Source of the DNA: Candidatus Gastranaerophilales bacterium
Lineage (GTDB): Bacteria > Cyanobacteriota > Vampirovibrionia > Gastranaerophilales > Gastranaerophilaceae
Direction of reading: 5' to 3'
Assembly: GCA_944325175.1 (NCBI GenBank)
Contig: CALUYZ010000005.1
Coordinates: forward strand, 15,484 to 79,483
Length of the DNA stretch: 64,000 bases
The notes beneath the pieces are model-generated. The model searched no databases. It saw only the letters and a program-made list of their open reading frames with translations, and had not been told where the DNA came from. This document shows, one piece after another, positions 18,756 to 61,670 of the stretch (position 1 is the first letter of the stretch; each line of letters starts with the position of its first letter). Position numbers and translations under genes: made by a program.

Positions 18756-18785
18756 AACAGGGCTTAAATTAAGCCCTGTTTTTTA
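18756..18785 (+). terminator. Rho-independent terminator
   Basis: aacagggctta-aat-taagccctgtt followed by TTTT. Confidence 0.8.
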
Positions 18786-26081: not shown

Positions 26082-28886
26082 ATGACAAATAAACCTTTCC
26101 AACTAACCAAAAAAAGAAAAATAATTTTAGCTTCAACGGTCGCATTAATTTGTGCAATTTTAGCTTTATATATCTTTGTTTTACCTTTTGTATTGACAAG
26201 CAAAGTTTTCATAAATAGTGTGCATAATTTTGTATTAAAAACAACGGGTGCAAATTTAGAAATTGTAAATCCTGTTGTTAAAACAAGCATTACACCTAAA
26301 ATTTTTATTTCATTTGACAAGCTTTCATTAACAAAAGAAAACGAAAAACTTTTAAATATAGATAAGTTTATCACTGCTTTTTATTTTGACCCCTTGTTTA
26401 AAAAAGAACTCAAATTCAAGGTTTTGGGCATAAATAAAATCTCTCTTAATGCTTCCAAACTTATTGAAATTCTTCCAAAACAGCAAGAAAATAATAAAAA
26501 ACAAGAAAAACTTCCTTTTAAAATAAATATTTTTGATTCCGTGTTTTTTGTAAACGAATGTAGTGTAAAATCTAATCTTATTAATGGCGCTAAATTAACC
26601 TTGAATGGTAAAAACCTTTTGATTGAGAGTGAAAAAAATCCAAAATACATAAGGTTTATTTTTGATGTATTAATTGAAAACGGTAAAGAAAATACTAAAA
26701 TCAGATTTACGGATAATAATAAATTTTACATTAAAGATAGAACATTAATTGCAGATGATTGTCCTTTATATATTAATAAATCTAAAATTCTTATTCAATC
26801 TCTTTCAAATGAGGGCTCTTTTGCTTTTATTTTAAAATCAAGGGGCTTTAAAATAAATGATGGCGCTTCGCTTTTGGGGCTTAACATTTTTATTAATAAC
26901 GGTTCTGATATTATAAGAGAATTAACCGATATAAAAGGAACTTCAGATCTTTATGTCAGACTTGATAAAGAAGGGCTTAAAGGCGGAGTTAGAGTTAATA
27001 AAAGTTCTTTTAAATTAAAATCTTTGGCAAATTTGCCTGTTTTTGTAAATGGCGGAATTATTAAAATAGAGCCTGATTTAATTACTTTGAAAAACTTTAG
27101 CGGTTTTTACGGCTCAGGTAAAAATAACAAACTCTCATTAGAGGGTACTGTTGCTGACTATTATAATTCCGTGGATACAAAAATAGCTATAAATACGGTT
27201 ATGACCGATGATTTTACAAGAAATTATTTGTCAAAATTAATTGGTTGCACAGTGACAATGACGGGCGAAAAACCCGCAGGAACAAGAATTGAAATTTATT
27301 CTAAGTTTAATAATATCGACATTATCTATATGGCCAAAGTTGATTCAGGCAACGATATATTAATTGAAAATTTATCTTTTAGCCCGCCAACTTACGATAG
27401 AGCAATAAAATGCGATATGCACATCAAAGGAAACATTCTAAACATAGAAAGTTTGAAATATTATATTGCAAAAGAAATTACTAAAAATTCCAAAGGTAAA
27501 ATTAAGCCTATAATAACTATGGAAGGTAATGTCGATTTAGCAAACAATTCAAAAATTTTGGATTTTGGTTTTGAAATTCCAAAGCCCTTGCCAAGTGAAT
27601 TTTTAAACATTTTTGTCGGACCCAAAACCTTTAAAAAGGGTCAAATTTCAGGCGGAATAAAATGGCTAAACAGAGGCAAGGTTCCAAAATTAATGGGTCA
27701 TCTTGCCATGAATAAGGTTATAATTCCTTCTCAAAGGCTTTATATAAAAGAAGGCACTTTTTCGACAGACCGGAATTACTTAAATTTCAATTCAACGGGT
27801 TATTTCAGGCGCTCAAAATATGACCTAAAAGGGCAAATTTCAAACTCTATTGTTTTTCCGATAATCGTTGATAATTTCAATTTAACTCTTGATTATATTG
27901 ATATTGAAAGGCTTCTAAAATCTCAAACAACCGCAGTAAATGTTAAAGATAAAGTAAGCGAAGAAGAATATATAAAAGCTGTAGAAACAAGCAATGTTAG
28001 TGCTTATGACGACTCTGCACCCGCTTTTGTACCAAACTTAATTGAAATTAAAAACGGCGAATTTAATCTGTTAAAAGGCAAATATAAAGAAATTGAATTT
28101 GCAAATGTAAAAGCCAAAATTTCATTAGATAGAAACGGCAATTTGAATATTAATTCAAACAGATTTGATTTTGCAAAGGGTCATTCTTCAGCCAAAGTGA
28201 TATGTAACTTGGTTGATAATAAATTCAGAGTGATATTGGGCGCAAAACAAATTGATTCAGATGTTATAGCAACTGCTCTTTTAAATTTAAAAAGGGAAAT
28301 TACCGGTCTTGCAAGCGGTATAATTGATATTAATACCGATGAAACTCTTGCACTAAACGGTATTATAAAGTTTGATATTAATAATGGCACAATCGAAAAA
28401 ATGGGACTTGTTGAATACGCCCTTAATTTTGTTTCGTTTTTCAGAAATCCTATGGCAATGATTAGCCCCTCTACTATTTTTGACCTTGTTAATATTCCTG
28501 AAGGCAATTTCGATAGAATTTGGGGTAATATTTCAATTAAAAATAATGTTGTTAACAAAATGATAATTAAAACAACTGCCCCTGAATTAGCAACTCTTAC
28601 TATGGGCAGATTTGACCTTGTTACAAGAGATGCTTCTCTTAGAATTTATACAAAATTTTCAAATAAAAATAAAGGCTTTACAGGCTTTTTAAGAGGTATT
28701 TCACTAAACAGTCTGGCAAATGTAGGTTCGTTTGGCATGAAAAATGATATTAACTACTATTCTGCCGAGCTTTCTTTAATTCCCAAGCTAAAAGTAGATG
28801 AAGAAAACAGTCAAATATTTTTAACTACAGTGGATGGAGATGTTGAACGTAATAATTTCTTATCTGCATTAAAAAAGATTAAGTAA
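26082..28886 (+). CDS. Large N-terminally anchored envelope protein, AsmA/TamB-like (tentative)
   Basis: 934 aa with a single N-terminal TM helix and long beta-rich repetitive sequence. The call is by architecture only. Confidence 0.35.
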   Translation: MTNKPFQLTKKRKIILASTVALICAILALYIFVLPFVLTSKVFINSVHNFVLKTTGANLEIVNPVVKTSITPKIFISFDKLSLTKENEKLLNIDKFITAFYFDPLFKKELKFKVLGINKISLNASKLIEILPKQQENNKKQEKLPFKINIFDSVFFVNECSVKSNLINGAKLTLNGKNLLIESEKNPKYIRFIFDVLIENGKENTKIRFTDNNKFYIKDRTLIADDCPLYINKSKILIQSLSNEGSFAFILKSRGFKINDGASLLGLNIFINNGSDIIRELTDIKGTSDLYVRLDKEGLKGGVRVNKSSFKLKSLANLPVFVNGGIIKIEPDLITLKNFSGFYGSGKNNKLSLEGTVADYYNSVDTKIAINTVMTDDFTRNYLSKLIGCTVTMTGEKPAGTRIEIYSKFNNIDIIYMAKVDSGNDILIENLSFSPPTYDRAIKCDMHIKGNILNIESLKYYIAKEITKNSKGKIKPIITMEGNVDLANNSKILDFGFEIPKPLPSEFLNIFVGPKTFKKGQISGGIKWLNRGKVPKLMGHLAMNKVIIPSQRLYIKEGTFSTDRNYLNFNSTGYFRRSKYDLKGQISNSIVFPIIVDNFNLTLDYIDIERLLKSQTTAVNVKDKVSEEEYIKAVETSNVSAYDDSAPAFVPNLIEIKNGEFNLLKGKYKEIEFANVKAKISLDRNGNLNINSNRFDFAKGHSSAKVICNLVDNKFRVILGAKQIDSDVIATALLNLKREITGLASGIIDINTDETLALNGIIKFDINNGTIEKMGLVEYALNFVSFFRNPMAMISPSTIFDLVNIPEGNFDRIWGNISIKNNVVNKMIIKTTAPELATLTMGRFDLVTRDASLRIYTKFSNKNKGFTGFLRGISLNSLANVGSFGMKNDINYYSAELSLIPKLKVDEENSQIFLTTVDGDVERNNFLSALKKIK

Positions 28887-41314: not shown

Positions 41315-42676
41315 TTAAGAATTTTTTATAAAAACATGATACTGTGTTCCGTAATTTGTGGTTTGTTTTTGGATATGATCAGATGCTTCTCTTCCGTCAC
41401 CAAGAGCTATTGAAATGTGACCATGGGGGTGATTTGATGAATTTTCCCAAACTACAATAGCGCCTTCAGGAAGATTGACAAGTTCGGATGCATTTTCGTA
41501 TTGATTTGTAACTTCAACAAAATCGCTTCTGGATTGTAAAGCAGGTATTGCTTGATAAGCGCTGTTATAGCTTAAACGAAAACCATAAACTTTTTCCAGC
41601 GTATTATTAACTCCTTTTAAGCACCAACCGGTTGTGCCCATTGAATTTGCAGTTTGTTCGGCGGCAGATGCCAATGTGCTGTTTGAAGGTAAGTTTCCTG
41701 TATAGGTTGTTGTTCCTGTTGAATATGTTGGTGTTGTGCTTGATATATTTTGTTTTGCACTTTGCTCTTTTATGGCTTTTACTTGAACTAAAAGCTCGAT
41801 ATCGTTTGTAAGTTTTAGAGTGTTTGTTGTTAGCTGAATTTCAGCCTGTTCTATGTTTGATTCAAGATTTTCAATTTGCGATTTCAAGGTTGAATCTTCA
41901 TATACCCTATCTTCCATTGTGTGGGTTTGATAGTATTCATTCATTAAATTTGTCATTAGCCCGCTTTGGCTGTCTGTTAAGCTTGAATTATCGGCCTCAA
42001 GCTCTTTGTTGCTATTTTCCGCTGTTTTTATATTTTTATTCGCATTTGTAATTAAGTAATTTAATTTTGTTATTTCACCATTTAATTTTTCTATTTCTTT
42101 TTGAAGTTCGTTAATTTTATCTGCATCTTGATTTGATGATTTTTGAAGTGTTTCAATTTCTTCTTCTTTTTCTTTAATTTCTTTTTCTTTTAGTTCAATT
42201 TCTTCTTTGGCTTCTTCTATTGATATTTTATTTTCTGTAATTATGCTTAAATTTTCTTGAATAGTGCCTGTGTTAAGAGCTATATTTGATATTATATTTT
42301 TAAGCTCTTCATCATATTTTTTCTGTACTTCTTTTGGAATAACATCTGTGCCGTTTGCAAAAATTGCTTCTATTGCATTTTTGCAAGTTTCAATATATGC
42401 ATCAGTTTCTGTTTGTTTATCTTTAATTTCTTGTTGTTTTTCTTCTATTTCTTTTTGAATATCTTCCGTTGTTTTAGAACTTGAAAGCATTTCTTCATAG
42501 CTTGTTTCACTTGTTTCATTTAATTCTACAAGTTCATCTTCAAGTGTTTGATAGTATGCTTCTTTTATTTTACTAACGCCGTATGTACCTGATGTTTCAG
42601 CTTTTTTTACTGTTTCGCTGCCTGAAATTGCACCGGTTATTTTTTTTAGTATTGAATTTATGTAGTTATAGCTCAT
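41315..42676 (-). CDS. Coiled-coil protein with C-terminal papain-like Cys/His hydrolase domain (CHAP/NlpC-P60 superfamily-like); no signal peptide
   Basis: About 300 aa of E/K/Q-rich heptad sequence. The C-terminal ~120 aa have GWCLKGV (candidate nucleophile Cys) and HPHGHISIALGDG (candidate His), spaced as in CHAP/amidase folds. The N-terminus is hydrophilic. Confidence 0.65.
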   Translation of the reverse strand: MSYNYINSILKKITGAISGSETVKKAETSGTYGVSKIKEAYYQTLEDELVELNETSETSYEEMLSSSKTTEDIQKEIEEKQQEIKDKQTETDAYIETCKNAIEAIFANGTDVIPKEVQKKYDEELKNIISNIALNTGTIQENLSIITENKISIEEAKEEIELKEKEIKEKEEEIETLQKSSNQDADKINELQKEIEKLNGEITKLNYLITNANKNIKTAENSNKELEADNSSLTDSQSGLMTNLMNEYYQTHTMEDRVYEDSTLKSQIENLESNIEQAEIQLTTNTLKLTNDIELLVQVKAIKEQSAKQNISSTTPTYSTGTTTYTGNLPSNSTLASAAEQTANSMGTTGWCLKGVNNTLEKVYGFRLSYNSAYQAIPALQSRSDFVEVTNQYENASELVNLPEGAIVVWENSSNHPHGHISIALGDGREASDHIQKQTTNYGTQYHVFIKNS

Positions 42677-42690
42677 TCACTTTATCCTTA

Positions 42691-45573
42691 TTATTTTTCT
42701 TCGTCTTCAAAATCAAGTTCATAATCATATCCGTCTTCGCCTTCGATTATGGTGGTTGAACTTGAAGAACTTTCATTGGATTGAATTTGCATGGTGCTTT
42801 CTTGTTCGATGTTATCTTCTTTTATTTCGTCATTTGTTTCTTCGCTTGTTAAGCCTGATTCTTTGTCATTTTGTGTTTCTATAAAGCTGTTTGAATTATC
42901 AACTTTTACAAAGTCTTCTTCTTCGCATGGAATATCTTCTGTTTTATCGTCAACTGTTTCATCAGGAATTTTTTCAGGCTCATTTTCTTCTGTTGTTACC
43001 TCTTCATTGCTTGTTTCAGGAGCCTTATCAATAATTATTGTTTCTTTGTCTTCATTTGTTTCTGATGTTGTTTGTTCGGGTTCTTGAGTTTTTAGAGGTA
43101 TGTCATTTGCTGTTTCTTCCTGTTTTGGTTCTGTTATTTCTTCCGTTGTTTCTTGGTCTTGAATTGGGGGTTCAATATTTGGATTATCGGGAATGACATC
43201 ATCCTCTGGTTCACATGGTTTTTTGTCAATAATTGTTGTATCTTCATCTTTGTTCATTTTATCAAGAATTTCTTGAAGAATATCTTCAATTTTGCTTGTA
43301 TCTACATTGTTGTTTACGTTGGTTGAATTATCAATACTTCCTATATTCGTGGAATTATCCGTATTGTTATTTGTTGTTGAATTATCTTGATAAATATTGG
43401 TTGTTGAATTATCAGTATAATTGTTGCTGTTATTTATTGAATTATCAGTAGAATTATTACTGTTTGATACTGAATTATCGTTTGTAATATCCGTATTGGT
43501 TGTTGTGTTATTTTGAGTATTGTTACTGTTTGTTGTTGTATTGTTATTTGTTATGTTATTTTCAGGATTTTTAGATGTTTCTTCTTCTTTTATTTCATTC
43601 AATTTTTGATTTAATATGATTAAAACTTGTTGGTATCCGCTTACATCACAACCTATGCTTTGCGATGTTTGAATATCTGTTTGAATTTTGCTTATGATTG
43701 AATAAATTTCATCTAATGATGTTGCTTTATCTGCATTGCTGATATAAATTTGTACTTTAGAATTTATTGCTGCCTCTTCACGACGTTTTAGCGTTTCAAT
43801 AAGAGATTGCGCACCTGAAACACTTACTGAAATGGAAGAATATTTTGATATCATAGAGCTTATTTCGCTCAATAATTGACGTCTTTCAGAACTTGTAGTT
43901 GCGCTATTAACTCTGTTTTCAAATGCTTTTATTTCTTCATCTACAAGAATTTGTTGAGTTTGCCTGATTTCTTTTAATTTTGCTTCAAGTCTGCTGCAAT
44001 CAAGCCCTTCTATTTGCTTTAATTCTTCATAATTTGCACTAAGTTCAATGTAAAGCTCTTCAAGCTCAAAAACAGAAAGGTTTGCAAGACTTATGCTTTG
44101 TACGTAGCTGTCTAACTCTTTTTGCGCTTCAGATTTTAGTGTTTCTGATGTTTTATTTATATCATCTGTGCTTGTCTCATATTGTGTTGAATTTTTATCT
44201 ACTTGTTGCGCAGTTGTTGCTGCTTGATTGCTTCCATTGACAAGACCTTGTACGGTTCCTGTTATGCCGTTATTTGCACTGTTTCCTGTTGTATAGGTGT
44301 TAAGCATTGTTTCAGCTGTTGTGTCAGCTTCTTTTTGGTTTGTTTCCTGTATTTTTTCAAGCAACTTTTCTAATTTCGATGTATCAAGACCTTTGCCTTC
44401 TGCATCTTTAATTAATGTTGAAATATCTTCATACAAGGTATTAAGGGTTGTTGTATCAGATATTACTTCATCGGTTACATCTAAACTTACTTGTTGTGCG
44501 TATGAATCAAGATATTCTTGTGCATATTTAAGGCTGTCATCTCCTGTTCCTAATTTTGTCATCAGTTCATTCAAGCCTTCAATCTCGATGCCGTATGTTT
44601 TACTAACCTCATAAAAAGGTTCTAATTTTGTTTGTGCTTCTATAATTTTATCTATATTTTCTGTAATGCTTCCTACATCTGTTATATCGTCAAAGTTAAA
44701 TTCGCTGTCAAGCAGCCCTTTTAAGTCGCTATTAACCTCATCTACTACTGTTTTTCCGCCATTTTGAAGTTTTTCTGCTGCCAAATTCCATGAATTATCG
44801 AGTCTGTCTGCTGTGTTTGTTATATTTTGTTGTAATTCAGCTAATTTTCTTTCCATTTCTTCATTCTGTTTAGATGAAGTGTATGCCCAAATTCCTGCGC
44901 CTACTGCTACAATTCCTGCTATTCCGGCCACTACCCAACCTGCAACCGGAACTGCAGCTGCAACTGCTGCTACCGTGCCTGCACCGCTTGTTACTGCAGC
45001 TGCTGATATTGCTGCAGCCGAAGAGGCTATGCAATATGCCGGAACCACAACTGCTACTGCGCCTGCAACGCCTGACGTTACAGCCTTTCCAACAACTCCG
45101 TTTTTCTCAAATTCAACGCCTGCCGCTTTTCCAAGTTCGCCTATTGCAATAGACATATTCGTCATATCTGCAAGAACTGCTGCAATTTCATCAGGATTAT
45201 CTTCATCCAATGATGCAATTTTTTTATCCAGTTCATTTACTTCATCTTCAATTTTTTCAAATATTGCAATAAGGTCATCAAGGCTGCTGTCTTCTGTCAG
45301 CTTGCTTATACCTGTTGAATTTGCATAAATTTTATAACTGTCGTAGTCAAAACCTTCAGGATATTCCTCTTCACCCTGAACTTCGCCTTCTTCGCCCAGT
45401 TGTATTTCTTGGTATTCGTCTTCGTTTATTTGTTCTGCCTTATTGCTTGCTATATAATTTGAAATAATTTCTTGCTTTTCTGATGTAGTTGATGCATTGT
45501 TTATTTCATTTAAAATAGCCTGTGAGTTAACCCTGTAGTATTTCCCGCTAATTTCCACTGAATATTCGCTCAT
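42691..45573 (-). CDS. Giant (~960 aa) hypothetical protein: soluble N-domain, Gly/Ala-zipper membrane core, about five helical repeats, Asn/Thr-rich DNS-repeat tract, highly acidic tail
   Basis: AAGGAAGG RBS before the ATG at 45573. Hydrophobic small-residue region at nt 44881-45096. Repeats share a ..LDSY.Q..SL....LY..IS.....G.D.S.LE.L..I pattern. 14-nt gap to the downstream hydrolase gene suggests an operon. Confidence 0.7.
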   Translation of the reverse strand: MSEYSVEISGKYYRVNSQAILNEINNASTTSEKQEIISNYIASNKAEQINEDEYQEIQLGEEGEVQGEEEYPEGFDYDSYKIYANSTGISKLTEDSSLDDLIAIFEKIEDEVNELDKKIASLDEDNPDEIAAVLADMTNMSIAIGELGKAAGVEFEKNGVVGKAVTSGVAGAVAVVVPAYCIASSAAAISAAAVTSGAGTVAAVAAAVPVAGWVVAGIAGIVAVGAGIWAYTSSKQNEEMERKLAELQQNITNTADRLDNSWNLAAEKLQNGGKTVVDEVNSDLKGLLDSEFNFDDITDVGSITENIDKIIEAQTKLEPFYEVSKTYGIEIEGLNELMTKLGTGDDSLKYAQEYLDSYAQQVSLDVTDEVISDTTTLNTLYEDISTLIKDAEGKGLDTSKLEKLLEKIQETNQKEADTTAETMLNTYTTGNSANNGITGTVQGLVNGSNQAATTAQQVDKNSTQYETSTDDINKTSETLKSEAQKELDSYVQSISLANLSVFELEELYIELSANYEELKQIEGLDCSRLEAKLKEIRQTQQILVDEEIKAFENRVNSATTSSERRQLLSEISSMISKYSSISVSVSGAQSLIETLKRREEAAINSKVQIYISNADKATSLDEIYSIISKIQTDIQTSQSIGCDVSGYQQVLIILNQKLNEIKEEETSKNPENNITNNNTTTNSNNTQNNTTTNTDITNDNSVSNSNNSTDNSINNSNNYTDNSTTNIYQDNSTTNNNTDNSTNIGSIDNSTNVNNNVDTSKIEDILQEILDKMNKDEDTTIIDKKPCEPEDDVIPDNPNIEPPIQDQETTEEITEPKQEETANDIPLKTQEPEQTTSETNEDKETIIIDKAPETSNEEVTTEENEPEKIPDETVDDKTEDIPCEEEDFVKVDNSNSFIETQNDKESGLTSEETNDEIKEDNIEQESTMQIQSNESSSSSTTIIEGEDGYDYELDFEDEEK

Positions 45574-45758
45574 AAAATACCTTCCTTTTTTTAAGACACA
45601 CTTCATTAAATCGGTTTTTATATTTTTTTTCTTTAGGAAAAAAATTATTTCTTAACAAACTTGTTACATTTAAGTTAATTTTTGTAAAATAATTTTTCTT
45701 TTTTGAAATTTCGCTGTCTATATATACTTTTTACATATATTCTGGAGAAAAATTCGCT

Positions 45759-47807
45759 ATGATTTCTGAATCTTTTGATTTATACCTTTTGAAAAATTCT
45801 GTCACCGTCAATTCTTTGGATGACACTAATTTAGATTTGAAAAGCGCACAAAATGAACAAGGTAAAAAAACAAATTCTACAGATGATGCCTCTGAGGATG
45901 AGTATCTTGAAGTTGATATAAAAGATGATGCCGATGATGAAACTGTTTTATCGGAAGATTTACCTTTAGTAAAAGAAGATGATTCAGATTCTTCAACGGA
46001 TGTTAAAAGCGATGAAAATGCATCTTTCGCATCGGATACCAAGCTTGATTCTTCTTTAGAAACAGAAAATGAAAAAGATGATGCTCAAGGCATAGATATA
46101 AAAGAATTCAAAAATATCATATCCGAAAATTCCAAAAAAGATGAGCTTATGGCAGAATATGGCTATGATAAGATATTTGACTATATCGATGAAAATAATG
46201 ACGGTCAAATTTCAGATGAAGAAATTAAAAATTTAGGTTTTGATATTACCGATATAAAAAATTTAACCGTTGAAAACATTCAAGAGTTGGCTAAACTTGC
46301 AGGTTTGCCTGTTGTGAGCCTTGAAGATGACAATGAAGATAAAAATAAAGATGATTCAATAGGGCTTACTCCTGAACTTTTGGAAAAATTAAAAAAGGCT
46401 TTTAGCGAAGATGACAATTCAAATGTTTTAAGCGAGCAAACAGTTAATACAGCATCACCTGTTAATTATAGTTATACACCCGCTAATACAGGCGTTTCCG
46501 GCGGAAATATTTCAAGTGCAAATTATTCAAATTCAAACGCTTCATCTAAAGCTCAGCCGGATGAAATGTCTATGGATGAGCTTTTAGATGAAAAGCAAAC
46601 AAAACAAAATGCGCTTTCAGATGCAAATTCTAAAGTTGCAGATGTTATGTCTAATAATGACGTTGAAGTTAAAGCAGCAATCGAAAATTCTGATAATAAG
46701 CAAGAAGAATATGAAAAATGCCTTAAAGAAGATGAAAAAATTTCAGATGAGCTAAAAGAAAGGCAAGAAAACAATCAAAAAGATATTGAAAGTAAAGAGA
46801 AAGCTATTTGTGACAAAGAAACTGAAATTGTAGAAGCTGAAGCAAAAATTCAAAATTTAGATAGCGAAATTTCTTTAATCGATAATAAAATTAGCGCACT
46901 TAATGCTTCATTGGCTGCATTGCCAGATAAAACAGAAGATAATCAATCAAGACATTCTGAAATTGATGCTCAAAAAGCAAATATTGAAAGTCAAATTGCA
47001 GATGCAAAGAACGACAAACAAGCAAAAGAAGATGAAAAATCTGAAATTAAAGATAAAAAAAACGATAATGAAAAAGAGCTTGAAGAACTGAAAGATGAAC
47101 TTAAAGAACTTGAAGATGAACGAGCTGATATTGAAGATGAAATTTTAAATTCTTGTTCAAATGAAACCAAACAAAAGCTTGAAGCTTGGCAAGATGCAAG
47201 AGAAAATATAGAAACCGTTAAAAATGAAAGACTTGCGCTTTTTAAAGAGGAAGTCCAAACGGCACAAGATGAACTCGATGAAGTTAATTCTTCAATTATG
47301 GAGCTTGAAAATATGCAAATTCAACTTCAAAATCGTGTTGGTGATGAAGGCGAAGATGTTGTTGATTTTGCAACAAAACTTGATGGTCTGAGTGCATCTG
47401 AAATGAAACAAATTATGCAAGCTGCCGGTTGCAGATTTGACGATGGCGCTTGGTGTGCTGATTTTGTTACCTATGTTACAAAACAAATTTATGGAAATGA
47501 TTCCACCCCCGGCAATTTTGCAAACAGTTGTTCCAATACGGCATCTTGTACAACGATAGGTGCTTGGGCAGATGCTAACGGTATTTTAACAACCGATTCA
47601 AGTCAAGTTGAACCGGGTGATTTTATCTTGTATCCAAAAAACGGTTCTTATGGACATATCGGAATAGTAACTTCAGTAAATGCAGATGGTACCGTTAATA
47701 CGGTTGAAGGTAATACAAGTTATGATAACGGCAGCTATAATGGCGGTGTTGTCAATCAATGGACGGGAAGAACCGGCTCTTATGTTTTGATGCATAAGCT
47801 GGCATAG
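45759..47807 (+). CDS. Acidic N-region plus EF-hand-like loop plus long coiled coil plus C-terminal CHAP domain protein; no signal peptide
   Basis: CHAP motifs WCADFVTYV (Cys) and YGHIGIVTSV...TVEGNTS (His, polar). DENNDGQISDEE fits the 12-residue EF-hand loop. About 250 aa E/K-rich coiled coil. Confidence 0.8.
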   Translation: MISESFDLYLLKNSVTVNSLDDTNLDLKSAQNEQGKKTNSTDDASEDEYLEVDIKDDADDETVLSEDLPLVKEDDSDSSTDVKSDENASFASDTKLDSSLETENEKDDAQGIDIKEFKNIISENSKKDELMAEYGYDKIFDYIDENNDGQISDEEIKNLGFDITDIKNLTVENIQELAKLAGLPVVSLEDDNEDKNKDDSIGLTPELLEKLKKAFSEDDNSNVLSEQTVNTASPVNYSYTPANTGVSGGNISSANYSNSNASSKAQPDEMSMDELLDEKQTKQNALSDANSKVADVMSNNDVEVKAAIENSDNKQEEYEKCLKEDEKISDELKERQENNQKDIESKEKAICDKETEIVEAEAKIQNLDSEISLIDNKISALNASLAALPDKTEDNQSRHSEIDAQKANIESQIADAKNDKQAKEDEKSEIKDKKNDNEKELEELKDELKELEDERADIEDEILNSCSNETKQKLEAWQDARENIETVKNERLALFKEEVQTAQDELDEVNSSIMELENMQIQLQNRVGDEGEDVVDFATKLDGLSASEMKQIMQAAGCRFDDGAWCADFVTYVTKQIYGNDSTPGNFANSCSNTASCTTIGAWADANGILTTDSSQVEPGDFILYPKNGSYGHIGIVTSVNADGTVNTVEGNTSYDNGSYNGGVVNQWTGRTGSYVLMHKLA

Positions 47808-47843
47808 AAATATAAATTTACAGAAACAGCATAGCGATTTTTT

Positions 47844-47875
47844 GGCGTCTTATTGATATGAGGCGCCTTTTTTTA
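47844..47875 (+). terminator. Rho-independent terminator
   Basis: ggcgtct-N10-aggcgcc followed by T7. A second hairpin at 47878-47911 may serve the convergent minus-strand gene. Confidence 0.75.
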
Positions 47876-47931
47876 TGTAATAAGAGCCGGCATGGTGACC
47901 GGCCCTTATTATCCTTTGTTTATTTGTAACC

Positions 47932-48390
47932 TTAGCCTTGAATTGTTCCGTTAAATGTTTCAAAAGGGTTTTTTGCTAATTGTGCTTCTTCTTTTGGTTC
48001 TGCTTGCTCAAGCGCTTGCATCTCGGGTTGAATGACTGTTGGCTCCATTTCTTTGATTGCTTGAGGAATGTCGTTTGCTGTTTCGTTATTATTTTCTGCT
48101 TGCGCTTGTTTGTCGTTGTTTTTGTTAAATAATCCAACGGCTTTATCTTTAATTGCAATAAATTCTTCTTTTTTTAGGCTTAATAAGGTTGTAGCTGCTG
48201 CGGCAAAAACACCTGCGATGCCTGCTTTTAAAATTCTTTTGCTTGTTTTCATGCCGTTAACCGCATCTTTTGCGGGTTTTGTTGCTAAAAATGCGCTTCC
48301 GGCTGAAAGCACTGTAGCAGCTCCAATGTATTTTGCTCTTGTTCTGTTTTCTTTATCTTGAAAAGCTGTTTGTATTGAATTTATTTGCAT
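47932..48390 (-). CDS. Small membrane protein (two small-residue-rich helices), paralog of 48404-48685
   Basis: A(F/Y)Q.KEN...I.AA...LS.G..LA..K....K..AGI..V pattern shared with the upstream gene. Acidic/Gln-rich tail. Confidence 0.6.
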   Translation of the reverse strand: MQINSIQTAFQDKENRTRAKYIGAATVLSAGSAFLATKPAKDAVNGMKTSKRILKAGIAGVFAAAATTLLSLKKEEFIAIKDKAVGLFNKNNDKQAQAENNNETANDIPQAIKEMEPTVIQPEMQALEQAEPKEEAQLAKNPFETFNGTIQG

Positions 48391-48403
48391 TTGTTTCCCC
48401 TTT

Positions 48404-48685
48404 TTAACCTTGATGTGTAAACAGTTTTCCTGCTTCTTTGTCGTATGCTGTCTGATTATCCGTATTTTTGTTTTTAAGTTTACTTACACCTGCTCTTATT
48501 GTGTCGATAACAACTGAAATTCCCGCCACAATTAAACCAACTTTGAGGGCATTTTTCGGGTTTTGTCCTTTATTAAAAGCTAAAGTTAAACCTGTGCTTA
48601 GTACTGCACTGCTTGCTGCATTTATTGCTACTTGTTTTGCATTTTCTTTTTGATATGCATTTGTGTATGAACCTTCTATGCGCAT
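48404..48685 (-). CDS. Small membrane protein, paralog of 47932-48390
   Basis: Same pattern as above. Start placed at MRIEGSY after AGGAAGG; the ORF extends to 48721. Confidence 0.55.
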   Translation of the reverse strand: MRIEGSYTNAYQKENAKQVAINAASSAVLSTGLTLAFNKGQNPKNALKVGLIVAGISVVIDTIRAGVSKLKNKNTDNQTAYDKEAGKLFTHQG

Positions 48686-48834
48686 TTTACACCCAACCTT
48701 CCTGTTGTAATTATAAAACATAAAATAAAATTTTTTTGCTATTATACCTTATTGCATTAGTTCTTATGTGCAATTTTTACATTTGTTAACTTTTAATAAA
48801 ATGCTTATGCTTGAGTATTTATGGGCGGTGTTTT

Positions 48835-49674
48835 ATGAAAAATGTATTAATCTTACTATTATTTGCACTTTTAACAGGTAGTCTTATTTATTTTGACAGC
48901 AGCAACAAAAATGATGTGGTTGTTGAATTTGAAAAGCTTAGACCCGTGAATGAAAAAATTAATGTTTACTATAATGGGTATAAAATAGGGCACTCAAGAA
49001 GATTTTTTCCTTGTGAAAATTCAAAAAGCATTTGTTTACTTATAAGTTTGAATAAAAATGCAATGTTTTTACCTGAAAATATTACTGCAAAAATGAAGCA
49101 GAAAAAAATTCATGACAGAAAATATGAAGATTATTTAGAAATTGTATACCCAAATGTTCCGTCAGATAAACCAATACGAGATGATATGGTAATTAAAGGC
49201 GAGCTTGCAAGCGGTTTTCATAATTATTTAAACGAAGAAGTTAATTTTTCTGATATGGAAGAATTAAAGCTTTCTCTCTCAAATTCTGTTCAAAATATAG
49301 AAAAAATGACAGCTTCCCTTGTTGATATTATGCAAAACATCGAAAGAACAACAAAAAAATCTGAATCCAATCTTGAAAACGCTTTTCAAAATGTTGATTC
49401 CACTACCAAAAATCTCTCCGACATAAGCAGCAAAATTAATTCATCCATAAATGAAACCTCCATGCAAGATATTATTCAAAATTTAGACGGCATCATGGGT
49501 AATATAAACGAATTTACAGCCGATTTTAACGATTCATCTTCCGACATTGGCGAAACCATAAGCTCAATCGAATCTATCACAAGAAACACAGATGAAATAA
49601 TTCAAGGTGTAAATTGCACTTTGAGAAAACCTTTCGGTGGTTTTCGGCTAATGTTTGGAAAAGTTGTAAGATAA
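48835..49674 (+). CDS. MlaD/MCE-domain-like protein with N-terminal anchor and helical C-terminal repeats
   Basis: N-terminal TM helix. MCE-like beta segment (VVVEFEKLRPVNEKINVYYNGYKIGHS). C-terminal N/S/T-rich helical repeats as in MCE proteins. No MlaE/MlaF partners adjacent. Confidence 0.5.
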   Translation: MKNVLILLLFALLTGSLIYFDSSNKNDVVVEFEKLRPVNEKINVYYNGYKIGHSRRFFPCENSKSICLLISLNKNAMFLPENITAKMKQKKIHDRKYEDYLEIVYPNVPSDKPIRDDMVIKGELASGFHNYLNEEVNFSDMEELKLSLSNSVQNIEKMTASLVDIMQNIERTTKKSESNLENAFQNVDSTTKNLSDISSKINSSINETSMQDIIQNLDGIMGNINEFTADFNDSSSDIGETISSIESITRNTDEIIQGVNCTLRKPFGGFRLMFGKVVR

Positions 49675-49797: not shown

Positions 49798-50769
49798 CTA
49801 TTTTTTTACACAACGTACGAGATATAATTCTGATCGGGGACGCTTTCCTCGGTCGCCATTTACAAAAGCCTGATACCAAGCCATACCGGAATTGCCTGAT
49901 GATACGGTTGTGCTTGACCAGTATCTGCTTTTGCTTTCACTTAAATTAATTAATGGTGCATTTACAAATAAAGATGTCAGTTCATCTTTATCAGGTAGCC
50001 TTAAATTTTCTGCCATATTTTTGCACGCTGTTGGCGCATCGATTGTTTCTTTGTTTTCTGAATAGTGAGGCACTGTTGAAGCGTAATCTTTGTCATAAGG
50101 AACAGGTGCTACAACTACAGGGTTTTTATTGTAGAGTGCTGTCATAAACCCAATATCTTTACCTATTTCATTAGGTCCTTCTTTACCATTTAGGTCGTAT
50201 AAAAAATTTACACACATATTGTTTTGTGGATAGTGATTGATTGACACACTTGATGAACACATAGGATTATAGTAAACAGCGATAGATTCACCATTTACCG
50301 TTTCAAAAGCAGCAGCTTTAGTATCAACCACGCTTCCTTTTTCTCCGTCCACATGAAGCCCGTTTAATAATTGGCTATTTAACTCGCTCATTTTAGTTGG
50401 AAAACTAATTTCAGAAACTGCATCTAGTGTTGCAACTTTACTTGGAATACCGCAAGATGAAAGCTTATCAGGACCACAAACATTGTTTATTTTATAAACC
50501 TTTGATAATGCATCCAAAATAAAGCTTTCAGCTGCCGTATCTTCTGTTGCGGTTCCTTCTTCATTGGTTTCAAATGTTCCATATCCACCCAACGTATTCA
50601 TCTGCCCAATCGCTTGCGCCATTCTGGCATGAAGCGCTTTCCTCTGTGCATCCCATGCTTTTTCGTTAACATTTACAAGTAAACTAGGCAACGTAATTGC
50701 AGCCACAATGCCAATAATTGCCAAAGTAATTAAAACTTCAGCAAGCGTAAAGCCTCTTGTCTTTTTCAT
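49798..50769 (-). CDS. Prepilin-type N-terminal cleavage/methylation domain protein with DUF1566-like C-terminal domain (paralog P1)
   Basis: MKKTRG|FTLAEVLITLAIIGIVAAITLP (G-1, F+1, E+5). C-terminal RLPDKDEL.SLF....YWSST....AWYQ.F..G....VRCV pattern. Confidence 0.82.
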   Translation of the reverse strand: MKKTRGFTLAEVLITLAIIGIVAAITLPSLLVNVNEKAWDAQRKALHARMAQAIGQMNTLGGYGTFETNEEGTATEDTAAESFILDALSKVYKINNVCGPDKLSSCGIPSKVATLDAVSEISFPTKMSELNSQLLNGLHVDGEKGSVVDTKAAAFETVNGESIAVYYNPMCSSSVSINHYPQNNMCVNFLYDLNGKEGPNEIGKDIGFMTALYNKNPVVVAPVPYDKDYASTVPHYSENKETIDAPTACKNMAENLRLPDKDELTSLFVNAPLINLSESKSRYWSSTTVSSGNSGMAWYQAFVNGDRGKRPRSELYLVRCVKK

Positions 50770-55146: not shown

Positions 55147-56118
55147 TTATTTCTCAACACAACGTACATAATGCGTATCTGAACGTTTGCCACGGGAAAG
55201 ATGCCCAACATTGAAGTTTTGGTACCATGCCAAACCGGACGACCCAAGTGAAATTACAGAACCTGACCAATAGCCACTTATACTTTTATTTAGTTCAATA
55301 AGTGGGGAGTTAATAAAAAGCGATGCCAGTTCATCTTTATCAGGAAGTCTTAAATCTTCTGACATAGTTTTGCAAACAGCTTGTGCATCAACCGCCTCTG
55401 TTTCTGTTGAATATTGTTGCACAGTCGATTTATAATCAGTACTGTAGGGAATAGGTGCCACAACTATAGGGCTCTTATTATTAAAAGCTGTTATGAAACC
55501 AATATCTTTTCCTACTTGATTAGGACCTTCGCTACCATTTAAGTCATAAACAAAATTAACACACATTCTGTTTTTGCTGTAGTGATCAAAGGTTTTATCA
55601 GAGCTGCATAGTGGATTATAAAAAACTGCTATTGATTCCCCATTTACTGTTTCAAAAGCAGCCGCTTTTGTATCAGCAACATCACCTTCTTCGCCTTCAT
55701 AACGTTGTCCGTTTAACAATTTATCATTCAGTTCACTCATCTTTGTCGGAAAAGTAAGCTCAGATGTTCCGTTTAAAGTTGTAATTTTACTTGGAATACC
55801 GCAAGATGAAAGTTTATCGGGTCCGCAAACATTGTTAATCTTATAAACCTTTGACAATGCATCTAAAATAAAACTCTCAGCTGCCGTATCAACCGTTGCG
55901 GTTCCTTCTTCATTGGTTTCAAATGTTCCATATCCACCTAATGTATTCATCTGCCCTATTGCTTGAGCTAATCTTGCATGAAGAGCTTTTTTCTGTGCAT
56001 CCCATGCTTTTTCGTTAACATTTACAAGTAAACTAGGCAAAGTAATTGCTGCTACAATACCAATAATTGCTAACGTAATCAAAATTTCAGCTAAAGTAAA
56101 CCCTGTTTTCTTTTTCAT
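55147..56118 (-). CDS. Prepilin-type/DUF1566-like protein (paralog P2)
   Basis: MKKKTG|FTLAEILITLAIIGIVAAITLP. The first ~110 aa are near-identical to P1/P3 and the C-terminus has diverged. Start moved to the ATG after AAAGG; the ORF extends to 56178. Confidence 0.8.
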   Translation of the reverse strand: MKKKTGFTLAEILITLAIIGIVAAITLPSLLVNVNEKAWDAQKKALHARLAQAIGQMNTLGGYGTFETNEEGTATVDTAAESFILDALSKVYKINNVCGPDKLSSCGIPSKITTLNGTSELTFPTKMSELNDKLLNGQRYEGEEGDVADTKAAAFETVNGESIAVFYNPLCSSDKTFDHYSKNRMCVNFVYDLNGSEGPNQVGKDIGFITAFNNKSPIVVAPIPYSTDYKSTVQQYSTETEAVDAQAVCKTMSEDLRLPDKDELASLFINSPLIELNKSISGYWSGSVISLGSSGLAWYQNFNVGHLSRGKRSDTHYVRCVEK

Positions 56119-56282
56119 CAAAATTACCTTTCTTTTATCAGCAAATTTAAAAAAATGTATAATGAAGCAATACTTCACATATAGTTATATTATCATCTTT
56201 TCACCTTGGCTTCAATGTATGAATTATAAATTATTATTTTAGCTTTTTGTACCACTATTACGGAATTATATTGCAACAAAAA

Positions 56283-56474: not shown

Positions 56475-57449
56475 ATGAAAAAGTTTAAAGGCTTTACGCT
56501 TGCTGAAGTATTAATTACTTTAGCTATTATTGGCATTGTGGCTGCAATTACGTTGCCTAGTTTGCTTGTAAATGTTAACGAAAAGGCATGGGATGCACAG
56601 AGGAAAGCACTTCATGCAAGAATGGCGCAAGCTATAGGGCAGATGAATACGTTGGGTGGATATGGAACATTTGAAACCAATGAAGAAGGAACCGCAACGG
56701 TTGATACGGCAGCTGAAAGCTTTATTTTGGATGCATTGTCAAAAGTTTATAAGATAAACAATGTCTGTGGTCCTGATAAGCTTTCATCTTGCGGTATTCC
56801 AAGTAAAGTTGCAACGTTGAACGGGGTATCAGAAATTAATTTTCCGACAAAGATGAGCGAGCTGAATTCATTTCTTTTGAATGGATTACACAAGATAAAT
56901 GAAGATGGAAATATTGTTGATACAAAGGCTGCTGCATTTGAAACGGTTAATGGTGAATCGATTGCGGTTTTTTACAATCCGCTTTGTGGCTCGGATAGCT
57001 CTGCAAGTCATTATGTTCAAAACAAAATGTGTGTAAATTTTATCTACGACCTAAATGGAAGTGAAGGTCCTAATGAAGTGGGCAAAGATGTCGGATTTAT
57101 GACTGCATTGTATAATAAAAATTCATCTGTTGTTGCGCCTTTTCCGTATAAGGTTAATTATAAAACAAAGGCAGTGTCATACTCTGATAGTTTAGATACA
57201 AAAGATGCATCAGAAATTTGTAAACTTCAAAATGAAGGGCTTAGATTGCCAAACAGAGATGAATTGGCATCATTATTTATTAATAGCAGGCTTATTAACA
57301 TTGTCGGGGACGGTTCAGGCGGGTATTGGTCGGGCTCAATTATTTCGGGTGGTACTAACGGTTTAGCATGGCATCAATATTTTAATGACGGAATTAGAGA
57401 AACGAGTTTACGTTCTACGGAAAGATATATAAGATGTCTTTATAAATAG
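56475..57449 (+). CDS. Prepilin-type/DUF1566-like protein (paralog P3)
   Basis: MKKFKG|FTLAEVLITLAIIGIVAAITLP. C-terminal RLPNRDELASLF...YWSGS...AWHQ.F..G...IRCL. Confidence 0.82.
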   Translation: MKKFKGFTLAEVLITLAIIGIVAAITLPSLLVNVNEKAWDAQRKALHARMAQAIGQMNTLGGYGTFETNEEGTATVDTAAESFILDALSKVYKINNVCGPDKLSSCGIPSKVATLNGVSEINFPTKMSELNSFLLNGLHKINEDGNIVDTKAAAFETVNGESIAVFYNPLCGSDSSASHYVQNKMCVNFIYDLNGSEGPNEVGKDVGFMTALYNKNSSVVAPFPYKVNYKTKAVSYSDSLDTKDASEICKLQNEGLRLPNRDELASLFINSRLINIVGDGSGGYWSGSIISGGTNGLAWHQYFNDGIRETSLRSTERYIRCLYK

Positions 57450-60492: not shown

Positions 60493-60540
60493 ATATATAC
60501 GAATTTCATATTTTATATATACTGTTACATTTCTTAATAT
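60493..60540. promoter_or_regulatory. Conserved non-coding block, copy B (matches 12371-12420)
   Basis: See 12371-12420. Lies 105-155 nt upstream of ORF 60646. Confidence 0.5.
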
Positions 60541-60645: not shown

Positions 60646-61134
60646 ATGGGCTGGGTAACACTGTCACTCAGAAAAATGGTTTTGACTCAAAGAGTATCAC
60701 AATTAGAAAACAGATTACTTCATTTGAGTCAAGAACAACAATCATTAGCAAATAGTTCTTCATACACAGAAAGAGCTATAGGTCTTGAAAAACAAGAAGC
60801 TTATTCTTCTCTTATGAACAATTACTCTGGCAACCTGAACAATATATCAGACTTTGTATCAAGCGGAAACGCAAGCGACCCTGCAAGCTTAATTCAATAT
60901 CAAGCAGAACTGCAACAACAACAGCTTGATTACATGTACAACAAAATGATAATTGATTCAGTGTTTACACAAAAAGAACAATCACTACAAGATGAAATAA
61001 ACAACAAACAAACTTACTTATCACTGGAACAAGAACAAGTAGAAACCCAATTAGAAGCAGCAAGAGCTGAACTTGAACAAATGGATGAAGCATGTTCACA
61101 AGATATTCAATCAAGTACAATTAGCTTAGTATAA
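60646..61134 (+). CDS. Uncharacterised coiled-coil protein, short family member 1
   Basis: MGWVTLSLRKMVLTQRVSQLENRL... and ...LEQEQVETQLEAARAELEQMDEACSQDIQSSTISLV. Paralog of 61185 and 11447. GGAG RBS. Confidence 0.7.
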   Translation: MGWVTLSLRKMVLTQRVSQLENRLLHLSQEQQSLANSSSYTERAIGLEKQEAYSSLMNNYSGNLNNISDFVSSGNASDPASLIQYQAELQQQQLDYMYNKMIIDSVFTQKEQSLQDEINNKQTYLSLEQEQVETQLEAARAELEQMDEACSQDIQSSTISLV

Positions 61135-61184: not shown

Positions 61185-61670
61185 ATGGGCTGGGCAGCAT
61201 TATCATTAAGAAAGATGACGCTCAAACAAAGAATCAACAACTTGGAACAAAGGCTTGTAAATATAAGCCAAGAACTCCAATCAATGTACGATTCGTCATC
61301 TTACGCACAACAAGCATTGGGCGTTGAAAAATCAAACGCACTTGCAAACTTACAACAAACATATTCAAACAATACATCAACATTAGCCGGTACATACCAA
61401 GGCGCAACAGATACATCTGCATTAAATGAATACAACACGGCATTGCAACAAGAACAACTTTCTTTAATGTATAATCAAATGATTCAAAACTCATTATTTA
61501 CAGCAAAAGAATCAGCAATGCAAGATTCAATCAACCAAGCAGAAACTCAATTACAATTAGAACAAGAACAAGTTGAAACACAATTAGAAGCAGCAAGAGC
61601 TGAATATGATTCACTCGATCAAGCTTGCTCACAAGATATTCAATCAGGCGCTATAAGCTTGGTATCATAA
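61185..61670 (+). CDS. Uncharacterised coiled-coil protein, short family member 2
   Basis: MGWAALSLRKMTLKQRINNLEQRL... and ...LEQEQVETQLEAARAEYDSLDQACSQDIQSGAISLVS. AAGGAG RBS. Tandem with 60646. Confidence 0.7.
   Translation: MGWAALSLRKMTLKQRINNLEQRLVNISQELQSMYDSSSYAQQALGVEKSNALANLQQTYSNNTSTLAGTYQGATDTSALNEYNTALQQEQLSLMYNQMIQNSLFTAKESAMQDSINQAETQLQLEQEQVETQLEAARAEYDSLDQACSQDIQSGAISLVS

Follow-up and report, generated by a model that had tools for sequence, protein, structure and literature searches.

How enzymes built to cut peptidoglycan might reach a cell wall when they carry none of the usual export signals is the question raised by a locus of six open reading frames (ORFs), here called A to F, in a Candidatus Gastranaerophilales bacterium. 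The locus lies on contig CALUYZ010000005.1 (assembly GCA_944325175.1), of which a stretch of 64,000 nucleotides was analysed and is referred to below as the window. Wall hydrolases normally possess Sec or Tat signals or else ride on type VI secretion, the flagellum, a phage tail or a holin, and the lack of a signal is a hallmark of endolysins. Two of the six products, A and C, end in wall-hydrolase domains with intact catalytic residues, lack signal peptides, and belong to a large family in which catalytic domains are exchanged. The explanation that is tentatively favoured here is that A to F make up a fast-evolving accessory locus, in which these two members of a modular, signal-less hydrolase family act outside the cytoplasm after leaving it by a route other than Sec.

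Two hydrolases without signal peptides

The features of A and C are given below (positions in the window; aa, amino acids).

A: 41315..42676, minus strand, 453 aa, no signal peptide; coiled-coil region at about aa 40-310, C-terminal hydrolase domain
Catalytic domain of A (aa 320-453): 41318..41719, minus strand, Tae3-like, NlpC/P60-CHAP superfamily
Cys352 of A: 41621-41623, minus strand, in the catalytic domain
His420 of A: 41417-41419, minus strand, in the catalytic domain
C: 45759..47807, plus strand, 682 aa, no signal peptide; acidic N-terminal region, EF-hand, coiled coil, CHAP domain
EF-hand loop of C, DENNDGQISDEE (aa 144-155): 46188..46223, plus strand, sub-threshold Pfam EF-hand matches
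CHAP domain of C (aa 562-652): 47442..47714, plus strand, with Cys566, His633 and Glu650; PF05257

The C-terminal domain of A (approx. 134 aa) is matched by no Pfam model above threshold. In an alignment of 25 diverse relatives, Cys, His, Glu, Ser and Asp residues and a GREASDH-type motif are invariant, and 23 of the 25 give sub-threshold CHAP matches (best E-value 4.9e-5). An AlphaFold model of the domain (predicted local distance difference test, pLDDT, of 92) was compared with the PDB by Foldseek, and the best match was Tae3 (4hz9_A; E-value 5e-5, TM-score 0.69/0.78), followed by MepS/Spr, Tae4, Tse1 and CHAP endolysins; Gsp amidase is found among the weak matches (rank 28). The structural matches to viral proteins are to virion-associated lysins, fused to baseplate hub or tape-measure proteins, and PHROG endolysin families are matched both by this domain and by C. 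Upstream of the domain, SMC-type coiled-coil matches span aa 42-282 of a region poor in proline and glycine. A lies 14 nt downstream of B and is followed, after 137 nt, by a carbonic anhydrase gene; no small ORF with a signal peptide, as expected of Tai3-type immunity, was seen beside A or its relatives in the loci inspected.

The CHAP domain of C exceeds the Pfam gathering cut-off (PF05257, 49.3 bits against 26, E-value 7.1e-13, aa 562-652) and includes Cys566 (in AWCADF), His633 (in YGHIGI) and Glu650 (in VEGN), of which Cys566 and His633 align with those of the LytN CHAP domain 11cf_A. Matches of C to PHROG endolysin families reach E-values down to 1.6e-9. A coiled coil of approx. 280 aa, poor in proline and glycine, precedes the domain at about aa 260-540 (SMC-type matches at aa 260-535). 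The loop DENNDGQISDEE, judged by its sequence, follows the canonical 12-residue EF-hand pattern; the Pfam EF-hand models give 19-21 bits where 25-28 are required (E-values 3e-4 to 9e-4), and the loop is kept in orthologues of C and in both CHAP-type and Tae3-type relatives. Many family members, though not A itself, combine an EF-hand with a Tae3-like scaffold.

These results bear out most of what the preliminary description of this DNA, drawn from the letters and an ORF list, had said of the two proteins. The ORF list confirms six ORFs where they had been placed and the gap of 14 nt between B and A. The layout proposed for C (acidic region, EF-hand-like loop, coiled coil and a bona fide CHAP domain) holds, with the EF-hand below the Pfam thresholds. 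The papain-like Cys/His domain proposed for the end of A agrees with the invariant residues, the confident model and the Tae3 match, and on the modelled fold it is more precisely a Tae3-like domain. On alignment, the catalytic Cys and His are intact in both enzymes.

The absence of signal peptides, likewise claimed at the outset, was examined as the maximum 11-residue hydropathy of the N-terminus, with signal-peptide proteins of the same window as controls. Values for A, B and C were 0.1-1.0 (0.8-1.0 for A and C), and those of the controls were at least 3.0; neither hydrolase has an N-terminal hydrophobic segment, nor does B. The property extends to the whole family, in which none of 119 complete proteins showed a signal-like hydrophobic N-terminus by this check.

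The family of the A domain comprises 140 proteins in a word-indexed search, and relatives were found at 208 places among GTDB species representatives. The labelled hosts belong mainly to Gastranaerophilales/Vampirovibrionia, Sericytochromatia, Eremiobacterota/Vulcanimicrobiota/Xenobia and UBP9, with a few others. N-termini are diverse: some consist of an EF-hand and a coiled coil, some of short starts rich in Ser, Thr and Asn (such as MSINSINPNDP), some (in Eremiobacterota) of low-complexity sequence rich in Met, Gln and Gly, and some of three PG_binding_1 repeats. Peptidoglycan is the probable substrate because relatives fuse the A domain to such peptidoglycan-binding repeats, and because relatives on viral contigs carry lipoprotein-type signals and the structural matches include virion-associated lysins.

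Seven viral-contig relatives of the A domain were found in IMG/VR. In six loci of this source (L092-L097; L-numbers denote related genomic loci compared), the relatives are proteins of approx. 228 aa with lipoprotein-type signal peptides, e.g., MKNIVFALLLLFGCSD, which the bacterial family lacks. The domain matched none of 50,697 GenBank phages. A prophage origin was considered and dropped, given no matched GenBank phage and seven IMG/VR relatives, of which those examined carry lipoprotein-type signals.

The modular nature of the family is apparent where its genes stand side by side. In L006, L016, L018 and L021, a Tae3-like gene is followed after 12-16 nt by a CHAP gene, and in the two pairs that were compared (L006 and L016) the first ~45 aa of the Tae3-like and CHAP proteins are nearly identical. 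L045 has three small adjacent genes with a common N-terminus and CHAP, Tae3-like and CHAP domains, respectively; the gene before them, for a CHAP protein of 769 aa, differs in its N-terminus. L051 has two hydrolase genes in a row. Overall, a CHAP gene lies no more than 3.5 kb from the Tae3-like gene in 8 of 51 species-representative loci. In L014, the position of C is taken by an EF-hand/coiled-coil protein of the same architecture that ends in a GH73 glucosaminidase domain (PF01832, 36.7 bits); a 313-aa paralogue also ends in GH73, and a 348-aa neighbour of the same build has a C-terminal domain that is lysozyme-like by eye and matches no family (GH73 and lysozyme-like variants at L014 1673-5685). 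CHAP proteins of 290 aa with the N-terminal mini-domain of B are encoded in L014 (14737-15609) and L015 (4675-5574). The catalytic domain is thus swapped among CHAP, Tae3-like and GH73 types on N-terminal modules that are retained between adjacent paralogues.

Two candidate export routes for the family were tried and rejected. RND efflux/TolC-like neighbours occur only in L004, L022 and L033, which are related genomes, and the genes are of the RND efflux type, not type I secretion ABC transporters. An N-terminal amphipathic helix as a family-wide signal is not supported (median hydrophobic moment 0.34 vs 0.38 in controls, one-sided p=0.998); a subset of long members share an F..L...I-type start.

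A conserved coupled downstream ORF was found in an Eremiobacterota subgroup only. In four loci (L044 10354-10689, L071 7848-8180, L077 4352-4687 and L086 10395-10727), an ORF of approx. 110 codons abuts or overlaps the stop of the Tae3-like gene and encodes a very acidic product without a signal peptide; L071 and L086 are labelled Vulcanimicrobiota, and L044 and L077 simply 'bacterium'. Upstream of the hydrolase in L044, L071, L086 and two related loci lies a gene for a helical protein of 380-410 aa with a CxxC...CxxC ribbon. The acidic and the CxxC...CxxC proteins may be chaperones or inhibitors.

Neighbouring genes and the six-gene arrangement

The other features of the locus are as follows.

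B: 42691..45573, minus strand, 960 aa, net charge -126; ends 14 nt upstream of A
Gly/Ala-rich hydrophobic core of B (aa 159-232): 44878..45099, minus strand, 74 aa, hydropathy 2.17
B/C divergent intergenic region: 45574..45758, 185 bp, with TGTTACATTT at 45662-45671 overlapping a -35-like hexamer
Terminator-like hairpin with T-run: 47844..47867, plus strand, between the convergent C and D
D: 47932..48390, minus strand, 152 aa, small membrane protein, starts MQINSIQ
E: 48404..48721, minus strand, small membrane protein, 105 aa (first ATG) or 93 aa (MRIEGSY start at 48685)
F: 48811..49674, plus strand, 279/287 aa, N-terminal membrane anchor, divergent MlaD/MCE domain, C-terminal helical region

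B consists of a β-rich N-terminal mini-domain, the hydrophobic core, a helical rod and a tail rich in Asn/Thr and Glu/Pro, with a conserved ELDFEDEEK motif at the C-terminus; its relatives have the mini-domain, the rod and, in most cases, the hydrophobic hairpin as well. The 960-aa start was adopted because homologues all begin MSEYS, MSSYE or MANYE; with it, the B/C intergenic region measures 185 bp instead of the ~150 bp first reported. The hydrophobic core, previously put at ~70 aa, measures 74. An exhaustive profile search of 1.84 billion representative proteins returned only 31 relatives of B. Many of these (P-numbers below denote B-family proteins) have an (I)PVAGW(I/V)VAG motif in the hydrophobic hairpin, which is absent from P0148, P0154 and P0158, and two PCExEDE motifs are conserved among the closer relatives. 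Comparison of P0139-P0158 revealed a conserved alternating hydrophobic and acidic run at the extreme C-terminus (e.g., ELDFEEDEK, EIEIEIEE, DIEIIVEE), which might be a targeting signal. In the AlphaFold model of B (pLDDT 78.6), the rod is confident and the core is a coil with a pLDDT of ~22; the underlying alignment holds 7 sequences, so the coil at this point is not decisive, and the core is probably a membrane hairpin. No Foldseek match exceeded a TM-score of 0.25, and structural homology to other proteins was dropped as a lead. A role for B as a dedicated exporter, as the preliminary description had offered as one option for the membrane proteins, is unlikely because relatives of B occur without hydrolases. 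B is more probably a clade-restricted acidic rod protein, co-transcribed with A, that serves as a partner or anchor. One family member, P0145 (996 aa; L101 8001-10991), is encoded beside a GntR-type regulator gene with no hydrolase nearby; it is present in 578 contig-index blocks, and its lineage is therefore common in sequenced samples.

D has one clear helix (aa 53-72), a weaker one, and a hydrophilic tail ending in QG. E is laid out similarly, and in each the second, weaker helix is rich in Ala, Ser and Gly. The two had been described as paralogous two-helix membrane proteins: they are membrane proteins, with one clear helix and a weaker one, and their relationship is suggested only weakly by the sequences (BLAST E-value 0.43; profile comparison 51% probability, E-value 1.5e-4). 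D adjoins the CHAP gene and is convergent with it in the window, L013, L082, L008 and L099, i.e., in five lineages that are all close relatives.

F is a divergent MlaD/MCE protein, in line with the original assignment. PF02470 is matched by 14 of 15 family members (best E-value 1e-6), and the window protein itself is below threshold (14.1 bits against 25.1; TIGR04430, E-value 0.0055). Mce4A (7ai2_A) aligns to aa 42-120 of F with an E-value of 0.11, and F has a weak precomputed match to PF28544 Helical_needle. As in MlaD, PqiB and other MCE proteins, an N-terminal anchor is followed by the MCE domain and a C-terminal helical region; unlike MlaD and PqiB, F has no MlaE/MlaF, PqiA or LetA partner gene adjacent to it, its neighbours being E and D at one end and a pseudopilin gene at the opposite end. 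Its identity between genomes is 42-64%, against 79-91% for housekeeping proteins. That F might be a slow-evolving housekeeping gene was suggested by L008 (64% identity) and dropped after L099 (42%).

The element TGTTACATTT had been taken as a hint of co-regulation between this locus, coiled-coil genes elsewhere in the window and an ORF at 17245. Four copies were observed against 0.6 expected; only those at 45662 and 60523 are intergenic, and the other two lie inside ORFs, one of them (17769-17778, minus strand) within ORF 17245 itself. Co-regulation by this element was accordingly rejected.

Whether A to F form a system was addressed through related genomes. The complete set was found in L013 and L082 only (A to F of L013 are 60-71% identical). 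L008 has the order F-D-C-B-A, with E absent and F cut by the contig end, and L099 has F-E-D-C-B with no A, at identities of ~30% for B, 49% for C, 33% for D, 46% for E and 42% for F. L014 retains B and A with the GH73 variant in the position of C and no D, E or F within 10 kb, and L100 has only B-like paralogues, which adjoin ferritin and lack the hydrophobic core. The genes of P0145, P0149 and P0154 have unrelated surroundings, which gave no tblastn match to A, C, D, E or F, and P0148 likewise has neither a hydrolase nor a counterpart of D, E or F close by. Conversely, other Gastranaerophilales have pairs of Tae3-like and CHAP genes that are not accompanied by B, D, E or F.

In the genomes that keep the block (L013, L082, L008 and L099), flanking housekeeping proteins are 79-91% identical to those of the window, and descent alone can therefore explain the synteny. 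Taken as a whole, synteny of the block is confined to genomes with flanking housekeeping proteins of 74-91% identity, one of which lacks A and another D, E and F. Between genomes with such flanks, A to F are 32-64% identical, which marks the locus as fast-evolving. Its arrangement is conserved in three respects. The order F-E-D-C-B persists despite a changed flank at F, where L099 has a GH57 gene, L013 an ORF judged by eye to resemble GH57, and the window a pseudopilin gene; wherever B and A are both present, they are direct neighbours with the same orientation; and the gene at the position of C invariably encodes a hydrolase with an EF-hand and a coiled coil, whichever catalytic domain it carries. 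The preliminary proposal of an undescribed system therefore stands in part. Its two signal-less hydrolases have intact catalytic residues and are unlike PcsB, CwlO and EnvC, whereas the dedicated six-gene system is not supported, B being found without hydrolases and hydrolases without B. The robust entity is the hydrolase family, and the six-gene unit is a clade-specific arrangement of unproven functional unity.

The surrounding window

All six ORFs are carried by an ordinary chromosomal stretch of a Gastranaerophilales (Melainabacteria) genome with a G+C content of ~32%. The window has an exact match in metagenome-assembled contigs (e.g., ENA ERZ24773294 NODE_552), and its close relatives are labelled Candidatus Gastranaerophilales or Galligastranaerophilus. 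The Pfam-annotated genes include MraW, PBP, UvrC, ComEC, peptidyl-tRNA hydrolase, sugar-nucleotide enzymes, ferritin, carbonic anhydrase, RnpA, L34 and several N_methyl/Lcl_C pseudopilins; the sole RNA gene is tRNA-Leu. No gene of a phage, an integrative conjugative element, a type IV, VI or VII secretion system, or FtsEX is present among them, as the preliminary description had noted for most of these. PADLOC, used to look for known defence systems, returned just coiled-coil noise.

Several other genes of the window deserve mention. The protein encoded at 18783-19616 (minus strand) is secreted, with a clear signal peptide and a low-complexity region rich in Gly, Tyr and Asn, and served as a positive control in the hydropathy check. 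Three pseudopilin-like genes with the prepilin N-methylation motif are found at 49798-50769, 55147-56178 and 56475-57449; two also encode an Lcl_C domain, and one directly adjoins F. A 934-aa protein (26082-28886, plus strand) has an N-terminal membrane anchor and no Pfam match. The product of ORF 17245 (17245-18729, plus strand; 494 aa, no signal peptide) has a Ser/Thr/Asn-rich start and, at aa 99-119, a Gly/Ala-rich hydrophobic stretch similar in character to the core of B; it matches nothing in Pfam or PADLOC, and among the loci compared has BLAST matches only in L009 and L010, both of which are one contig from the same organism. Two tandem genes (60646-61134 and 61185-61670, plus strand) encode paralogous, signal-less coiled-coil proteins of ~161 aa that begin MGWxxLSLRKMxLxQR...; no family could be assigned, the lone weak match being T3SS_needle_F (E-value 0.006), and a copy of TGTTACATTT (60523-60532) lies upstream of the first gene. 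An N-terminal motif, MSINSI or MQINSI, is common to D, some hydrolases and other proteins; we take it to resemble the N-termini of flagellin and FlgM.

Possible routes to a cell wall

The individual parts of the locus are of known kinds, namely CHAP, the NlpC/P60 superfamily (Tae3-like), MCE and EF-hand. The closest relative in structure of the A domain, Tae3, is an amidase effector of the type VI secretion system of Ralstonia pickettii (PDB 4HZ9, 4HZB) and shares with it a papain-like Cys-His core, the lack of a signal peptide and the small size of the wall-cutting domain. Tae3 cleaves the mDAP-D-Ala cross-link, a specificity that may be expected of A as well. However, identity is only 19-24%, the Pfam tables of the window contain no type VI genes, no Tai3-type gene is nearby, and the A domain caps a coiled-coil protein of 320 aa. 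Moreover, the family of A is found in Vampirovibrionia, Sericytochromatia and Eremiobacterota, whereas Tae3 belongs to proteobacterial type VI loci. Polymorphic toxins likewise combine common N-terminal modules with variable catalytic domains, fast evolution and tandem arrays (as in L006, L016, L045, L051 and L014); in contrast to them, the hydrolase family has neither a PAAR, LXG, MIX, Rhs or similar trafficking domain nor adjacent immunity genes in the loci searched. FlgJ, itself a GH73 enzyme like the variant in L014, and phage virion lysins are signal-less wall hydrolases carried by a dedicated machine, yet the family has no rod-binding domain and no flagellar or phage structural genes nearby. 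Gastranaerophilales are reported to have type IV pili and partial or complete flagellar gene sets, complete in some only (PMC4040986, PMC5877343). What is new is the combination: a Tae3-like domain outside type VI secretion, on signal-less coiled-coil scaffolds between which catalytic domains are swapped, in several little-studied phyla.

Signal-less hydrolases that are released by small chromosomally encoded membrane proteins are also known from holin/endolysin cassettes and type 10 secretion systems (ChiWXYZ, TtsA and the lysis cassette of Yersinia entomophaga). Chromosomal cassettes of this type serve release and not a phage burst (PMC10109510, PMC10847048), and holin/hydrolase secretion systems that are chromosomal and not of phage are known (PMC10109510, PMC10847048, PMC9527704). 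By analogy, D and E, perhaps with the hairpin of B, would lesion the inner membrane, so that C and A reach the wall and either open it locally or lyse a subpopulation that releases its contents, as in type 10 secretion or programmed lysis. The absence of signal peptides, the PHROG endolysin matches of C and of the A domain, the small size, Ala/Gly-rich helices and hydrophilic tails of D and E, and the constant position of D beside the CHAP gene in five lineages all fit such a mechanism. We nevertheless regard it as unlikely, since neither D nor E could be assigned to a holin family, no D or E lies within 10 kb of the genes for B, A and three hydrolases in L014, and no D/E-like gene stands by the hydrolase pairs of L006, L016, L045 and L051 (a D-like gene was considered beside the pair in L016, and no relationship was found). 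In addition, the hydrolases are large, modular and far more elaborate than endolysins, no spanin, cargo gene or phage remnant accompanies them, and the link to D and E is confined to one narrow clade. A different view holds that A and C are housekeeping enzymes of wall remodelling or cell separation, whose coiled coils are steered by B or by FtsEX encoded elsewhere. PcsB, CwlO, RipC and EnvC, wall hydrolases or activators under the control of FtsEX, are indeed laid out in this way, with a CHAP or NlpC/P60-type domain at the C-terminal end of a long coiled coil; a weak coiled-coil match to an EnvC-type M23 protein (8tzk_E) was obtained, and A is co-transcribed with a membrane protein. However, proteins of that type are provided with Sec signal peptides and need FtsEX, compared with 0 of 119 signals in the family of A and C and no FtsEX among the annotated genes of the window. 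The EF-hand loop and catalytic-domain swapping also set the family apart, as does an evolution far faster than that of housekeeping genes. Near relatives differ, as L099 has no A and L014 has GH73 instead of CHAP. Arrays of as many as four neighbouring hydrolase genes (L045), of which three combine one N-terminus with different catalytic domains, would be unexpected for a conserved function in division; this explanation is therefore quite improbable.

It has also to be asked whether the genes work together at all. They might be neighbours by descent in a variable spot beside the ferritin gene, each acting alone: F as a lipid-transport MCE protein, B as a surface or membrane rod, and A and C as independent hydrolases. 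The content of the spot does vary (only B-like paralogues by ferritin in L100, no A in L099), B and the hydrolases occur without each other, and no neighbour family recurs across phyla. The survival of the F-E-D-C-B order in L099, where B has fallen to ~30% identity, and next to a changed flank at F speaks against this view, as do the neighbouring, co-directional position of B and A in all lineages with both genes (a gap of 14 nt in the window) and the constant nature of the hydrolase in the position of C; we regard independence of the genes as unlikely. Least probable is that A and C are cytoplasmic enzymes, i.e., amidases that recycle wall fragments or act on substrates other than the wall, built on coiled-coil scaffolds. 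A cytoplasmic location is the simplest fit to absent signal peptides, and glutathionylspermidine amidase is a CHAP domain that acts on a non-wall substrate, with Gsp amidase appearing at rank 28 among the weak structural matches of A. Yet the best structural matches are wall endopeptidases and lysins, relatives have peptidoglycan-binding repeats, phage relatives have lipoprotein signals, and four types of wall-cleaving domain (the fourth lysozyme-like by eye, with no family match) are placed on the same scaffolds. EF-hand loops, moreover, suit a calcium-rich extracellular setting.

In the favoured explanation, C, as a putative CHAP amidase/endopeptidase, and A, as a putative Tae3-like Cys/His endopeptidase, would exit the cytoplasm by a route other than Sec, acquire their fold or activity there with the help of calcium, and cleave peptidoglycan at its cross-links and stem peptides outside the cell membrane. 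The target would be the walls of neighbouring bacteria or, alternatively, the producer itself through controlled opening or lysis. Enzymes released outside would reach the exposed walls of Gram-positive neighbours, and no immunity gene would be needed because the outer membrane of the producer would protect it from an enzyme acting from without. Among the local genes, a holin-like release step would be most readily assigned to D and E; the export route may instead be a machine encoded elsewhere in the genome. F, a divergent MCE protein, has an unproven connection with the other genes.

Several observations weigh against this interpretation. No export machinery was identified, and we infer the exit of A and C from the cell, as well as their target and route. 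D, E and B have no significant match in Pfam, NCBIfam, PHROGs or PADLOC and belong to no holin or transporter family therein. All-against-all clustering of the ORFs of 80 loci gave no neighbouring gene family shared across phyla. The known effectors that attack bacterial walls are encoded next to immunity genes, of which none was seen at this locus. The fast evolution may mean no more than that coiled-coil and disordered segments are weakly constrained, and the organism is uncultured, its hydrolase activities being predicted from sequence and models. A bolder proposal, and a distinctly unlikely one, is that signal-less calcium-binding hydrolases and B-type rods are substrates of an undescribed export or release route of which D, E and F are the envelope-crossing part. 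They would constitute an immunity-free arsenal, directed at neighbouring bacteria, of non-photosynthetic Cyanobacteriota, Eremiobacterota and allied uncultured groups, whose outer membrane would shield the producer.

The Tae3-like domain merits a family definition of its own because no Pfam model passes threshold on it. The hydrolase family shows the marks of exported, fast-diversifying effectors, namely swapped catalytic domains on common N-termini, EF-hand loops and tandem arrays. If it became clear how its members gain access to a wall, a hitherto unrecognised route of export or controlled lysis might come to light in gut Melainabacteria, as might the ways in which these bacteria interact with their neighbours.

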